From Candidatus Spongiisociaceae bacterium (GTDB lineage: Bacteria > Actinomycetota > Acidimicrobiia > Spongiisociales > Spongiisociaceae), in the NCBI GenBank assembly GCA_965202665.1, contig OZ241841.1:928001-992000 (forward strand): a stretch of 64,000 nucleotides of DNA, in the 5' to 3' direction. Positions 45,696 to 50,329 of this stretch are shown here, one piece after another (positions within the stretch are counted from its first letter, which is position 1; every line of letters starts with the position of its first letter). Made by a program: the position numbers and the translations under genes. The notes below the pieces were generated by a model. That model made no database searches. It saw nothing but the letters and a program-made list of their open reading frames with translations, and had not been told where the DNA came from.

Positions 45696-45773
45696 ATGGT
45701 TAGGTTACACTAAACAGACCGACTCCGCTAGCGGACGGCGGGAATTGTCCACCCGATGATAAGGAGACAGCCG

Positions 45774-46523
45774 ATGGCCAATGCGATACGGGAACGGGTG
45801 CGGGAGGAGTACGCGCAAACGGCCCGCGCCGCCCGTCATACGACCGGAGGCGATTCCTGTTGCAACGGGGAAGGATGTTGCGGCGGGGCGGGCGAGGCGG
45901 AAATCGCCCACCGGCATTACTCCGACGCCGAGTTGGGGGAGTTGCCAACGGCGGCCGCCGAAGCCTCCCGGGGTTGCGGCAATCCGATGGCGGTGGCCGA
46001 CCTGCGCCCGGGGGAGACGGTGCTGGATCTGGGTTCCGGCGGGGGGATCGACGTGTTGCTGTCCGCCCGGCGGGTGGGGCCGGACGGGTTCGCCTACGGG
46101 TTGGACATGACCGAGGAGATGCTGGAGCTGGCCCGGGCCAACGCCGTCCAAGCCGGGGTGGAAAACGTGGAGTTTCTAGCCGGGCTAATGGAGGAGATTC
46201 CCCTGCCGGACGACAGCGTGGACGTGGTCATTTCCAACTGCGTAATCAACCTGTCCACCGACAAGCAAGCCGTGTTCCGGGAAATAGCCCGCGTGCTCCG
46301 CCCCGGAGGCCGGTGCGGCATCTACGACATCGTGGCCGAAAACGGAATGAGCCAAAAGGAACGCCTGGATCGGGGCTCCTGGGTAGGTTGCATAGCCGGA
46401 GCCCTAACCTTCGAAGAATTCCAAGCTGGCCTAGAGAAGGCGGGCCTGACCAACATAGAGATAACCCCCCACCACCAAGAAACCGAACACATGCACTCCT
46501 GCATAATCCGAGCCACCCGATAA
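45774..46523 (+). CDS. arsM: Arsenite methyltransferase
   Basis: [40 protein letters not shown]. Confidence 0.9.
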
Positions 46524-46571
46524 GTGTATAATAGACAACCAAGGAAATACGGCCTTACACAGGAGCCAACA

Positions 46572-47222
46572 ATGAGCGCGAACCTGCTAAAGGAGTTGGA
46601 GAAAGAGGGTTGGGCTACAATGCCCGCCGAATCCAAAGATACTGAGCATATCCAGAGTGCTTTAGTATCTATTGCAGCCGACTTGGGTCAGCCCATTTCG
46701 ACCAAAAACGGCGTCGTTGAAGAAGTATCGCCGTATCACATAGAAGATAGTAATCCTAACTCTCTGAGCGGAAAGTATGGTTTAGATAATTTTCCGCTAC
46801 ATTGCGATACAAGTCATTGGGTTGTGCCTTGCCGTTATGTACTGCTTTCCTGTAAGAAGGCCAGCGATATTCCTGTTTCAACAAAACTACTTGATACTCT
46901 AAATATGGATTTATCATTGTCGGACAAACAACTTGCCCTATCTTCCGTTTTTCTTATCAAAAATGGTAGAAAGTCATTCTATTCTAGCATTCTATCATCC
47001 AGTAGAGATTTTATCCGCCTAGACCCTGGTTACATGTATGCGTTGGATGACGATGGTAAAAAGGCGATGGAAGTTTATTCTTACGCCAAACAGAAGGCTA
47101 AGATTATAGAAATAAATTGGCAAATAGCCGATATATTAATAATTGATAATTGGAGAGTCCTCCATGGGCGAGGAGCAAGTCCAAAATTGGATCGCAAACT
47201 ACTAAGAGTTCGTGTAAAATGA
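46572..47222 (+). CDS. TauD/TfdA-type 2OG-Fe(II) dioxygenase (AT-rich island)
   Basis: FPLHCDT (HxD), RYVLLSC, IIDNWRVLHGR, RKLLRV; AGGAG RBS; TATAAT at 46527-46532. Confidence 0.85.
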   Translation: MSANLLKELEKEGWATMPAESKDTEHIQSALVSIAADLGQPISTKNGVVEEVSPYHIEDSNPNSLSGKYGLDNFPLHCDTSHWVVPCRYVLLSCKKASDIPVSTKLLDTLNMDLSLSDKQLALSSVFLIKNGRKSFYSSILSSSRDFIRLDPGYMYALDDDGKKAMEVYSYAKQKAKIIEINWQIADILIIDNWRVLHGRGASPKLDRKLLRVRVK

Positions 47223-48172
47223 AGATAGGACCATTGCAAACTGCCATAGATCCTGATGCCCTCATGGGTAAATCCAAAGTATATATACGAAGAGCTTTGA
47301 ATTGCAAGAATACAAACGATCACGACCAGTATCAACTCTGGGCTTCGCTAGCACTAGAGTTGCTCGCCAAGTCTTTTCTGGCAAAAATTCATCCCAGCCT
47401 AATTGTTAAACCCGACCATTTTCCATCTCTTTCCGCAGCCTCGGGTATCAACATAGAAACCGATATAATAACAATACCCGCTAAAACACTGTTTGATCGA
47501 CTTGAAAAATTGTTACCCGAATTCGATGAAAAAGTGAAGGAATTTTGTTACGCTATATCTAGAAGGAGAAACGCAGAGCTCCATTCAGGTGAAGTTCCTT
47601 TCCAAGATATGAGATTAGAAACATGGGAAGGCCCATATTGGTATACCGTGCAAATCCTCCTAAAGATGTCAGCATCTAATTTGGAGGAATGGCTAGGAGT
47701 AAATACTAAACCACCACCCGAAATTTTAGATTCGTTCTGGAAAGCTACAAAAAACATTGTGGAAACAAAAATTGAGCAAGCAAAAGAGGGGTTTAGCAAC
47801 CTCTCAAAAAGAGAGCACTCTAAATCGCTAGATAACATACCAGAAATAACAACGGACTGTTGCCGAGAATTCTTTGATCTAGCCGAGCCATATATTTGCT
47901 GGGAATCAGAATGTCCTGCTTGTCCTGGACCGGCGATAATGGCTGGTAAGCAGTATGGTGAAGACATATTTAACCGAGAAATAGACCAAGAGGATGACTA
48001 TACAATATGGGATAATGTGATCAAATATTATGGAGCGGAGGAATTTCATTGCCCTATTTGTAATCTACATCTTGATAGACAGTCAGAAATAGCAGTAACA
48101 AATATGACATCTGAATATGATGAAGTCGAAGATCGAGTATCCGAATATCAATTAGAGTACGAAAACGAATAA
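47219..48172 (+). CDS. HEPN-like protein with C-terminal zinc ribbon (AT-rich island)
   Basis: ALELLAK (Ex3K) and RNAELH (Rx4H); CPAC...CPIC; acidic tail; ATGA overlap with the dioxygenase. Confidence 0.7.
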   Translation: MKIGPLQTAIDPDALMGKSKVYIRRALNCKNTNDHDQYQLWASLALELLAKSFLAKIHPSLIVKPDHFPSLSAASGINIETDIITIPAKTLFDRLEKLLPEFDEKVKEFCYAISRRRNAELHSGEVPFQDMRLETWEGPYWYTVQILLKMSASNLEEWLGVNTKPPPEILDSFWKATKNIVETKIEQAKEGFSNLSKREHSKSLDNIPEITTDCCREFFDLAEPYICWESECPACPGPAIMAGKQYGEDIFNREIDQEDDYTIWDNVIKYYGAEEFHCPICNLHLDRQSEIAVTNMTSEYDEVEDRVSEYQLEYENE

Positions 48173-48185
48173 TCTTAATATTTTG

Positions 48186-48908
48186 CTACTGGGTTGGGTT
48201 TTCTTGGTTTCGGTGTAGGGGGGAGGGTGGGGGATTGAGTCCTGTTTGGGCGGATAGCATTTTTTCTAGTTGTTCTCCTACTCCTAGGACGTGTTCGCTT
48301 ACCATTTTGCGTACTGTGGCGGTGTCGCGGGCTTCCATTGCTCGGATTATTTCTTCGTGCTCCTCTGCTCCTCGTATCGCCCAGTCGGGGGCTTCTTCTA
48401 CGAAATCGTCGGGGATGTAAGCCGAGATGGGGCGTAGCACGGCCAGCACCGGGGTGGAATGGGACATCCGGTTCAGTTGCCGGTGGAAGCTTCCGTTCAG
48501 GCGGGCGGCGGCTGCTATCTCCCCCCGGCGGGCCGCTTCGATCATCTGCCTATTGGTTTCCTTCAACCGGGCCAGCTCCGCCGCCGTGTACCGTTCGGCG
48601 GCCCGGGCGGCGGCCAGCGCATGCAAATGGGACTGCGCCTCGAAGGCGTCCCGGATGTCGGCGGGGGTGATGTCGGCCACTTCGGCGTCTTTGCCGTTGG
48701 GCCGGGTCACGAACCCTTCCATCTCCAAAATGTTGATGGCGTCCCGGGCCGGCATGCGGCTGGTGCCGAACCGCCGGCACACCTCGTCCTGCGGCAAAGG
48801 CGACCCGGCCGGCAAAGCGCCGAACAGAATCTCGTGGCGCAACCGCTCCGCTATCTGCTGACCGAGCGGGCGGCGATCCAAACCCGGTTCGCCTGCGGAC
48901 AACTTCAC
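48186..48908 (-). CDS. GntR family transcriptional regulator (FCD)
   Basis: IAERLRHEI, FGTSRMPARDAI..LEMEGFV, N.SFH, EHEEIIRA. Confidence 0.9.
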   Translation of the reverse strand: MKLSAGEPGLDRRPLGQQIAERLRHEILFGALPAGSPLPQDEVCRRFGTSRMPARDAINILEMEGFVTRPNGKDAEVADITPADIRDAFEAQSHLHALAAARAAERYTAAELARLKETNRQMIEAARRGEIAAAARLNGSFHRQLNRMSHSTPVLAVLRPISAYIPDDFVEEAPDWAIRGAEEHEEIIRAMEARDTATVRKMVSEHVLGVGEQLEKMLSAQTGLNPPPSPLHRNQENPTQ

Positions 48909-48913
48909 CCCGC

Positions 48914-50329
48914 TCAGCCGACCGCGCCCGCCGCCGCCATGTTCAACTCAATCAGGCGGTTCATCTCCACCGCGTATTCCATCGGCAATTCTTTGACGAT
49001 CGGCTCAATGAACCCGGCCACCACCATGGAAGTGGCCTCGTCCTCGGTCAGCCCCCGGCTCATCAGGTAAAACAACTGCTCCTCCCCCACTTTGGACACG
49101 GTGGCCTCATGCCCGATCTGGGTGTCGGCCTCCTCGATCTCCATATAAGGATAGGTGTCCGACCGGCTGTCGTCGTCCAAAATCAGCGCATCGCACCGCA
49201 CGAAGGATTTGGCATCCTCCGCTCCCGGCTCCACCCGCACCAGCCCCCGGTAACCGGACCGGCCGCCCCCTTTGCTGATCGACTTGGACAGAATCGTGGA
49301 AGTGGTGTTGGGGGCGACATGCACCATCTTCGCCCCCGTGTCCTGATGCTGCCCCTCCCCGGCGAAAGCGATGGACAGCACCTCGCCGTGCGCCCCCGGC
49401 TCCATCAGCCACACCGCCGGATACTTCATCGTCAACTTCGACCCCAGGTTGCCGTCCACCCATTCCATGGTGGCGTCCCGGTAGGCGGCCGCCCGCTTGG
49501 TCACCAGGTTGTAAACGTTGTTGGACCAGTTCTGGATGGTGGTGTAACGGCACCGCCCCCCCGCTTTTACCACGATCTCCACCACCGCCGAATGCAGCGA
49601 ATCGGTGGAGTAAACAGGGGCCGAACATCCTTCCACGTAATGGCAGAAAGCGCCCTCGTCCACGATAATCAAAGTGCGCTCGAACTGGCCCATATTCTCC
49701 GAGTTGATGCGGAAATAGGCCTGCAACGGCTGGTCCACATGCACCCCGGGCGGCACGTAGATGAACGACCCGCCGGACCACACCGACGAGTTGAGGGCGG
49801 CAAACTTGTTGTCGTTGGGCGGGATAACCGTCCCGAAATGCTCCCGCACCAGCTCCGGATGCTCCCGCACCGCCGAATCCATGTCCATGAACAGCACGCC
49901 CAGCGACTCCAGGTCCTCCCGGTTGCGGTGATACACCACCTCCGACTCGTACTGGGCGGTCACCCCCGCCAAAAATTTGCGCTCCGCCTCCGGAATGCCC
50001 AACTTCTCATAGGTGTCTTTGATGGATTCGGGCACCATATCCCAGTCTTTGGCCTGCTCCTCGGCCGGTTTGACGTAGTAATAGATGTCATCGAAGTCGA
50101 TTTCATCCAGTTTGCCCCCGCCCCCCCAGGTGGGCATCGGCCGGCGCAGGAAACGCTGATAGGCCCGCAGGCGGAAATCCAGCATCCACTGCGGTTCGCC
50201 TTTGATGCGGGACATCTCGCGGATGATGTCCTCGTTCAGGCCCTTCTCCGGCTTGAAAACGTAGTCGTCCTCCGGGTCGCTCCACCCCAACCGGTAAGCC
50301 CCCAAATCAATATCAACTGTGGTGGTCAT
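48914..50329 (-). CDS. sufB: Fe-S cluster assembly protein SufB
   Basis: [64 protein letters not shown]. Confidence 0.96.

Follow-up and report, generated by a model that had tools for sequence, protein, structure and literature searches.

A two-gene cassette in a swappable slot

The window (the whole 64,000-nucleotide stretch of DNA that was analysed) contains a compact block of two overlapping genes, the first encoding a 2OG-Fe(II) dioxygenase and the second a protein that combines a HEPN domain with a zinc ribbon (Table 1). A preliminary description of this DNA had called the block sharply AT-rich, and its composition agrees: the block has 40% GC in a 64% GC genome, where 56 of 2768 1-kb bins have 43% GC or less. 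The same description had placed the block between convergent arsM and gntR genes. The gntR call was correct (a GntR/FCD regulator), while the left-hand neighbour is a SAM methyltransferase, for which arsM is the earlier reader's name.

Table 1. Positions of the cassette, its genes, their domains and motifs, and the flanking genes within the window
Feature	Position	Strand	Basis
Flanking SAM methyltransferase (arsM-like)	45756..46523	+	Methyltransf_31, E 3e-33
Low-GC swappable cassette slot between convergent methyltransferase and gntR	46518..48182	.	X13 contig joints; G001 comparison
TATAAT, possible -10 element, without matching -35	46527..46532	+	Sequence; not picked by promoter scan
AGGAG ribosome-binding site of gene 1	46561..46565	+	Sequence
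Gene 1, compact TauD/clavaminate-synthase-like 2OG-Fe(II) dioxygenase, 216 aa	46572..47222	+	Pfam, Foldseek, alignment
Gene 2, HEPN, helical linker, Cys4 zinc ribbon and acidic tail, 317 aa	47219..48172	+	Model, alignment
HEPN domain, residues 6-157	47234..47689	+	VIA structure alignment and conservation
E47 (upstream) with R117-N118-x-x-x-H122	47567-47584 (R117 to H122)	+	Conservation in 113 members
Cys4 zinc ribbon C232, C235, C278, C281 on long beta hairpin	47912..48061	+	Conservation; strands 226-277 in model
Terminal tag Y314-E-N316-E317 (family consensus YGND-stop)	48158..48169	+	Conservation
Flanking GntR/FCD regulator	48186..48908	-	Pfam match; occurs in G001 without cassette

We determined the limits of the block by comparing it with contigs from sequencing runs whose labels name sponge or marine metagenomes. 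In run X13, one contig joins position 46517 to position 48183 with 6228 different letters in between, so that the true cassette limits are those given for the slot in Table 1. Contigs of run X3 (45725-47984 and 47963-49142) cross both block junctions and a contig of run X5 (46490-48297) spans the whole block, which excludes an assembly artefact. In a genome of the same genus (G001, 91% complete), a different low-GC block lies behind gntR and encodes an 889-aa protein with an N6-methylase domain; no match to gene 2 was found in that genome. Together with the X13 replacement, this second arrangement identifies the site as an exact, swappable cassette slot. Neither flanking gene belongs to the system: the neighbours vary among related loci and the X13 contig swaps the block alone, which rules out the methyltransferase, and the presence of gntR in G001 without the cassette rules out the regulator.

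The other occupants of the slot deserve mention in their own right. The 6228-bp X13 cassette may be another defence system. The 889-aa protein of G001 (L085:8428-11094) has a nuclease-like N-terminus, a weak N6-methylase match and no PADLOC match, and is possibly a divergent type IIG-like restriction-modification (R-M) gene. The flanking genes show a drop in third-position GC at their 3′ ends, from 0.95 to 0.60 (46340-46523) and from 0.90 to 0.42 (48186-48400), while sufB stays high; the drop would fit cassettes having been exchanged repeatedly through recombination within these gene ends, or else a drift towards AT next to the slot.

The expression signals that had been proposed for the pair were confirmed in part. 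The AGGAG ribosome-binding site is present upstream of gene 1, and so is the TATAAT hexamer. A promoter scan, however, found no plus-strand -35/-10 pair; it returned three sites, all on the minus strand, against 4.2 expected by chance. With its matches at chance level, the promoter of the pair is unproven. Among the runs that carry the block none of RNA was listed, a result that has no bearing on expression.

A complete dioxygenase with an amino-acid-type pocket

The preliminary description had assigned gene 1 to the TauD enzymes from two facial-triad motifs, LHCD and DNWRVLHGR. Both are present, and Pfam (TauD, E 1e-11, 45.6 bits against a cut-off of 27) and Foldseek agree that the protein is a complete TauD-clan dioxygenase. 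The best Foldseek match of the predicted structure is AsnO (E 4e-12, TM 0.76), nearly equalled by BBOX1, OrfP and clavaminate synthase (E about 4e-12 to 3e-11, TM about 0.75); because of this near tie, the rank of AsnO does not identify the substrate of gene 1. Named equivalogs among the clavaminate-synthase-like (CSL) enzymes (AsnO-like, VioC, CAS, GntD) reached at best 32.5 bits against a cut-off of 345, with no AsnO model among those listed. Its nearest relatives of known structure have amino acids and amino-acid derivatives as substrates.

Catalytic and binding residues are strictly conserved across 71 pair members. The iron triad H77, D79 and H198 is kept in 71 of 71, with either Asp or Glu at position 79; both arginines, R208 and R212, are invariant in 71/71, as are S64, R149 and D151. 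Counted by hand, these conserved residues of gene 1 align with H144, E146, D233, R293 and R297 of CAS1 and with S168 of KDO1. As described in PMC6224419, the second Arg of CSL enzymes ('P19') and Ser168 of KDO1 bind the substrate carboxylate, and an Asp shapes the side-chain pocket. The lid-bearing segment between T104 and D151 is 47 residues long in 68 of 71 members, while its equivalent in CAS1, KDO1 and NapI has 61-73 residues (counted by hand). A shorter lid segment fits a more open active site, and we infer a more open pocket in gene 1 than in its relatives. By these alignments, gene 1 is a complete, probably active enzyme with an amino-acid-type pocket. In the window copy, residue 154 is Tyr, compared to Cys in 70/71 members.

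A HEPN and zinc-ribbon protein with an acidic tail

The features that had been read from the sequence of gene 2 (the ATGA overlap with gene 1, ELLAK, RNAELH, CPAC, CPIC and the acidic tail) are all present, and its identification as a HEPN protein was upheld by a structure search of its model and by the near-invariance of its motif. The predicted structure (pLDDT 93.6) was searched with VIA, and the top 12 rows are all HEPN-type chains that cover about residues 6-157 of the model, with Z scores from 13.2 to 8.7. The best of them is 2hsb (Z 13.2, rmsd 2.9, 124 aligned residues), and the HepT entries 5yep and 7ae2 score Z 10.7 and 9.6. Foldseek against the PDB gave no significant match (its weak HEPN rows include 2hsb at E 1.9), and gene-2 profiles matched nothing among PDB sequences under E 0.09. 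Among 113 diverse family members, E47 and R117 are kept in 113, N118 in 111 and H122 in 112. By this conservation, gene 2 is predicted to be an RNase.

Each cysteine of the zinc ribbon is kept in 112-113 of the 113 members, and by analogy with RAZR the ribbon is a candidate sensor, likely of phage proteins. A Pfam search of the members and the structure search revealed no nucleotide-binding sensor domain. Gene 2 itself matches no family in Pfam, PADLOC or NCBIfam; its PHROGs matches are two weak rows of unknown function, and the ESM Atlas matched only unnamed clusters. Across the 113 members, family matches were weak and scattered, DUF3644 being the commonest with nine. The family is large, with 782 matches and 1492 relatives at 50% clustering. 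The window copy departs from the consensus at several otherwise conserved sites, and this copy of the pair may be drifting.

The pair recurs across phyla

We searched for the gene neighbourhood in other genomes and found that the pairing recurs. A dioxygenase lies upstream of gene 2 in every one of the 81 related loci that the gene-2 profile retrieved; an insertion interrupts one of them. Of another 83 loci, 79 have the dioxygenase, two stop at a contig end before it, and two copies of one lineage lack it. Where the pair is intact, the two genes nearly always share 4 or 8 nt (68 of 72), and the coupling persists down to 24-29% identity. Pairwise distances of gene 1 and gene 2 correlate (rho 0.58, 0/999 permutations), as is expected for co-transferred genes.

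Paired loci occur in Alpha-, Beta- and Gammaproteobacteria, Verrucomicrobia, Planctomycetes, Bacillota, Spirochaetota and others. Per genome the pair is rare: the close gene-2 profile matched 0 of 400 other genomes of the window's class, any gene-2 relative in 3 of 400 genomes of its phylum (one of them paired), and a distant copy in 2 of 30 near relatives of the window's genome (both paired). Another phylum gave four strong matches in 400 genomes, all paired. The family is carried on 37 plasmid records. INPHARED phages gave no match and only four distinct viral contigs carry the family, so the pair is not mainly phage-borne.

Among 175 loci, three have a broken dioxygenase beside an intact HEPN gene and six the reverse, all in draft or metagenome assemblies; measured against gene length, the binomial P-value of this split is 0.75. 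Broken copies thus show no antitoxin-like asymmetry. One distant pair (L217, in G018) has a frameshifted HEPN gene beside genes that, read by eye, resemble Vsr and GIY-YIG nucleases.

A terminal tag is kept with the dioxygenase

Gene 2 ends with Y-x-N-x followed directly by the stop codon in 71 of 71 coupled members, 60 of which have YGND. The same ending occurs in 100 of 102 close homologues and in 82 of 113 diverse ones. Its position is always terminal, though it lies 33-64 residues beyond the last CxxC, and in the model it is unstructured and of low confidence (pLDDT 59). A DNA-level cause of this conservation is ruled out, since the codons of the tag vary synonymously and the DNA downstream of the stop is unconserved. 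Even the drifted window copy retains Y314 and N316.

Where the dioxygenase is missing, so is the tag. We identified 12 solo relatives of gene 2, each lacking a dioxygenase within the 1.5-6 kb retrieved around it, and the tag is present in 0 of 12. Eleven of them were placed in trees (FastTree, with long branches), where they form one clade. A separate lineage (L209/L211), nested among tailed members with a support of 87 for L209, has neither dioxygenase nor tag; in L209:2974-4251 the tag is replaced by a C-terminal extension of about 120 residues that matches nothing in Pfam. Because the 11 solos form one clade, the co-losses amount to about two independent events, a count that leaves out two nested tail-less clades (13 proteins). 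The tag is retained beside the dioxygenase and disappears where that gene is missing, in about two co-losses that are not statistical proof. A metagenome scan aimed at a tail-less clade yielded mainly members with the tail, at 22-31% identity, and nothing closely related to the query; 60 relatives of G419 gave no match.

The association also has exceptions. One paired branch ends in DDNNE or DDNNER in place of the tag, in L141 and L142 the tail is disrupted although the dioxygenase is still there, and in L214 an Asp replaces the Asn of the tag. Among 65 dereplicated, complete further loci, 62 have both the enzyme and the tag, two have the enzyme without the Asn tag, and one has neither.

The neighbourhood points to phage defence

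We next compared the genes beside the pair to known defence families. The scan covered 128 of 538 selected neighbours (the nearest gene on each side in L001-L070 without L052 and L061, identified with a home-made gene caller), and at a threshold of E<=1e-15 a PADLOC match was found in 39 of 128, as counted by hand, compared to 8 of 141 control genes located 100 kb away in 20 carrier genomes. The eight control matches are mostly generic cross-hits. In the loci matched to controls (L051 in place of L052), 10 of 40 neighbours match PADLOC, and when nine related Ppl-like genes are removed, 30 of 119 do. The P-values of the enrichment range from 1e-3 to 1e-7 and are overstated because kin are not independent. 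Matches include type I R-M, Gabija, Shango, Lamassu, AbiEi, AbiU/AIPR, PD-T4-7, HerA and SIR2, and other neighbours are integrases, transposases, TraG, HipA and VapBC. Defence genes are thus commoner beside the pair than in the control, and no metabolic partner, transporter or pathway gene recurs beside it. From this genomic context, we consider it likely that the mobile gene pair is an anti-phage module.

A fixed third gene is ruled out, as the commonest other neighbours occur in at most 10 of 81 loci. A Ppl/TrlF-like ATPase of about 1000 aa lies directly upstream of the pair in nine loci (L025, L026, L033, L035, L037, L041, L044, L047 and L049), all from one alphaproteobacterial group, and directly downstream of it on a Pseudomonas megaplasmid (L107).

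Comparison with known systems

The pairing had not been recognized as a named system, and our searches concur. PADLOC 2.0 contains no family that matches either window protein (for gene 2, none at E<=1), none of the 71 gene-1 members has a PADLOC match, and neither gene has an NCBIfam match, nor gene 2 a Pfam match, above cut-off. No literature on a dioxygenase and HEPN pairing was found in a search that most subscription papers lay outside. Judged by PADLOC, Pfam, NCBIfam and literature text, the pair is uncatalogued; it may be listed elsewhere as an unnamed candidate. The outcomes that the preliminary description had named as refuting its reading (a gene-2 fold other than HEPN, no co-occurrence or a place in metabolic operons, an existing catalogue entry) did not occur in these searches.

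The closest single protein is RAZR (PD-T7-4), described as a zinc-finger and HEPN abortive-infection RNase (PMC13017515). Like RAZR as it is described there, gene 2 joins a Cys4 zinc ribbon and a HEPN domain with an Arg/His motif in one protein and occurs in a defence context. Unlike RAZR, whose zinc finger is N-terminal, gene 2 has the HEPN domain first, then the helical linker and the acidic tail, and it is tied to a dioxygenase gene where RAZR is a single gene. The HEPN family of RAZR, DUF4145, had no match at E<=0.01 in the 113 gene-2 members.

In gene arrangement the pair resembles HEPN-MNT (HepT/MntA), a type VII toxin-antitoxin system in which the toxin is controlled by covalent modification. 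Both have the HEPN fold and an enzyme gene upstream of the HEPN gene, and we propose that covalent modification of the toxin is shared as well; an AMPylated HEPN entry, 8xdj, is among the structure matches. The partner of gene 2, however, is an oxidative 2OG-Fe enzyme in 81/81 loci instead of a nucleotidyltransferase, and the gene-2 protein is more than twice as long as HepT, with a zinc ribbon and a terminal tag. The pair is most like RAZR joined to HEPN-MNT logic, yet it fails membership of both. For type VII in a wider sense, where an antitoxin enzyme acts on its toxin by modification, the evidence is indirect: the conservation of the tag with the dioxygenase speaks for it, and the lack of asymmetry among broken copies speaks against it.

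Other HEPN proteins are more distant. HepS of prophage Gifsy-1 is described as a HEPN abortive-infection RNase that is off by default (PMC13434031), and the gene-2 model matches its fold (VIA, Z 6.9). The EC042_2821/DUF3644 HEPN family, reported in fusion to zinc ribbons and in R-M operons (PMC3710099), matches 9 of the 113 members weakly by profile (best E 9e-5), as well as one solo relative (Pfam E 0.004), but gene-2 scores are far below membership. The main text of that HEPN survey of 2013 contains no mention of dioxygenases, 2OG or hydroxylases.

Gene 1 shares with the CSL hydroxylases AsnO, CAS, VioC and KDO1 the fold (TM 0.7-0.76), the iron triad, the 2OG-binding Arg and the substrate-carboxylate residues. 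It differs from them in length (about 220 aa compared to 320-360), in its shorter lid segment and low identity (16-21%), and by being encoded with a HEPN gene instead of in a biosynthetic cluster. A functional parallel, by analogy and without homology, is FIH, a JmjC-type animal asparaginyl hydroxylase that acts on the transcription factor HIF: in both, a 2OG- and O2-dependent hydroxylation of an Asn near the C-terminus is proposed to act as a switch.

A proposed mechanism and its alternatives

We propose a mechanism whereby the dioxygenase binds and hydroxylates the Y-x-N-x tail of gene 2 and thereby keeps the predicted HEPN RNase off until infection, in a mobile anti-phage pair. The whole of this account is tentative, and we give it somewhat less than half of our belief. 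Its parts differ in strength. The amino-acid-type enzyme, the gene overlap and the co-varying terminal Asn tag are most simply accounted for if the tag is a ligand or substrate of the dioxygenase, and a direct link between tail and dioxygenase is, on these sequence comparisons, fairly likely. That the action of the dioxygenase would be 'off' rather than 'on' is only modestly favoured.

According to the proposal, the tail would enter the active site of the dioxygenase with its free carboxylate on R212 and S64, and its penultimate Asn (N316) would be hydroxylated. The hydroxylated or bound tail would keep the RNase switched off before infection. The RNase would be released either when this brake is lost, through host shut-off or a fall in 2-oxoglutarate, iron or oxygen, or by a phage trigger, with the zinc ribbon likely sensing a phage protein as in RAZR. 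The freed gene-2 protein would then dimerise or oligomerise, cut host and phage RNA and stop the infection, as other HEPN families suggest. The most specific version, an immune RNase switched by 2OG- and oxygen-dependent hydroxylation of its own C-terminal Asn by a CSL-clan tail hydroxylase (as antitoxin or as arming enzyme), is doubtful, with perhaps a third of our confidence. Those CSL enzymes whose structures were matched have free small molecules as substrates, which argues against a protein tail in that role.

The first alternative reverses the sign. The RNase would be off by default, and the dioxygenase would arm it via the tail, either on infection or constitutively. All of the tail and enzyme evidence is shared with the preferred reading. 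The enzyme-first order and the translational coupling are the usual layout of antitoxin and toxin, in which the antitoxin comes first, and this counts against arming. The HEPN genes that stand intact beside a broken dioxygenase in three loci favour it, though these three copies may be assembly errors, and so do the 12 solo relatives, whose existence without any dioxygenase indicates that the HEPN-zinc-ribbon fold can be quiet alone. Overproduced RAZR and HepS are also reported as not toxic (PMC13017515, PMC13434031). With solo relatives in existence and no asymmetry among the broken copies, the arming model stays alive, and we regard it as unlikely, at roughly one part in five of our belief.

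In a second alternative, the dioxygenase would oxidise an infection-linked nucleotide, modified base or metabolite whose product activates the HEPN RNase, and the tail would have another job (autoinhibition or ligand binding). The preliminary description had likewise suggested that the enzyme senses or modifies a nucleotide, a claim for which we found no positive support, the closest solved relatives of gene 1 acting on amino acids and their derivatives. Strict catalytic conservation in gene 1 and tight gene coupling are compatible with such a signal, and some TauD-family enzymes act on UMP or xanthine. Yet the top structural and sequence relatives of gene 1 act on amino acids, gene 2 has no visible nucleotide-binding sensor domain, and the loss of the terminal tag together with the enzyme is left unexplained; we consider this alternative quite unlikely. 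Because the relatives act on amino acids and the tag tracks the dioxygenase, the partner protein is a better candidate for the ligand or substrate, which is nearer to the earlier suggestion that the enzyme 'neutralises the effector'.

A third alternative holds that the genes are selfish, an addiction or stress toxin-antitoxin pair carried by mobile elements, and play no part in defence against phages. The 37 plasmid records and the integrase, transposase, TraG, HipA and VapBC neighbours are in its favour, but defence neighbours are about five-fold over control, the slot that holds the window pair is chromosomal and contains a methylase-domain gene in a relative, and broken copies show no asymmetry, so that we judge it improbable. 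Finally, a metabolic or detoxification pair (a dioxygenase for herbicides or sulfonates beside a CxxC redox protein) is suggested by the TauD annotation of gene 1 and by a preprint that assigns a metabolic role to a TauD gene and a 'CxxC motif protein' newly acquired by a Ralstonia lineage (bioRxiv 10.1101/2024.10.16.618685); an R. solanacearum megaplasmid carries the pair (L106:7290-8903), which may or may not be the preprint's genes. Gene 2, however, is a HEPN protein with an invariant RNase-type motif whose CxxC pairs make up a zinc ribbon, and no transporter or pathway gene recurs among the neighbours, which makes this reading very improbable indeed.

Implications

The pair is a real, widespread and uncatalogued two-gene system, probably with an anti-phage role. 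HEPN RNases are controlled by nucleotidylation, cyclic nucleotides, protein antitoxins or phage proteins, and we found no literature report of their control by an oxidative enzyme. New here is the conserved terminal tag of gene 2 that tracks the presence of the dioxygenase. If the tail is indeed hydroxylated, the pair would control a toxin by a new kind of chemistry, its CSL-clan enzyme would act on a protein, and infection might be sensed through metabolism; phage defence would be tied to the state of iron, oxygen and the TCA cycle, in parallel to HIF/FIH sensing in animals. Should only the defence role hold, the two genes would still make up a system that is uncatalogued, and a TauD annotation on a mobile element should be checked again before it is taken as catabolic. 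The pair is small and easy to clone, and its four-residue tag allows a direct test.

Besides the pairs, a related set of single genes was observed. These solo HEPN-zinc-ribbon proteins (L109, L113-L115 and L123-L130) have an RNGxxH motif and acidic tails that end otherwise, and are common on Streptomyces plasmids. This uncatalogued family is a candidate single-gene defence system.
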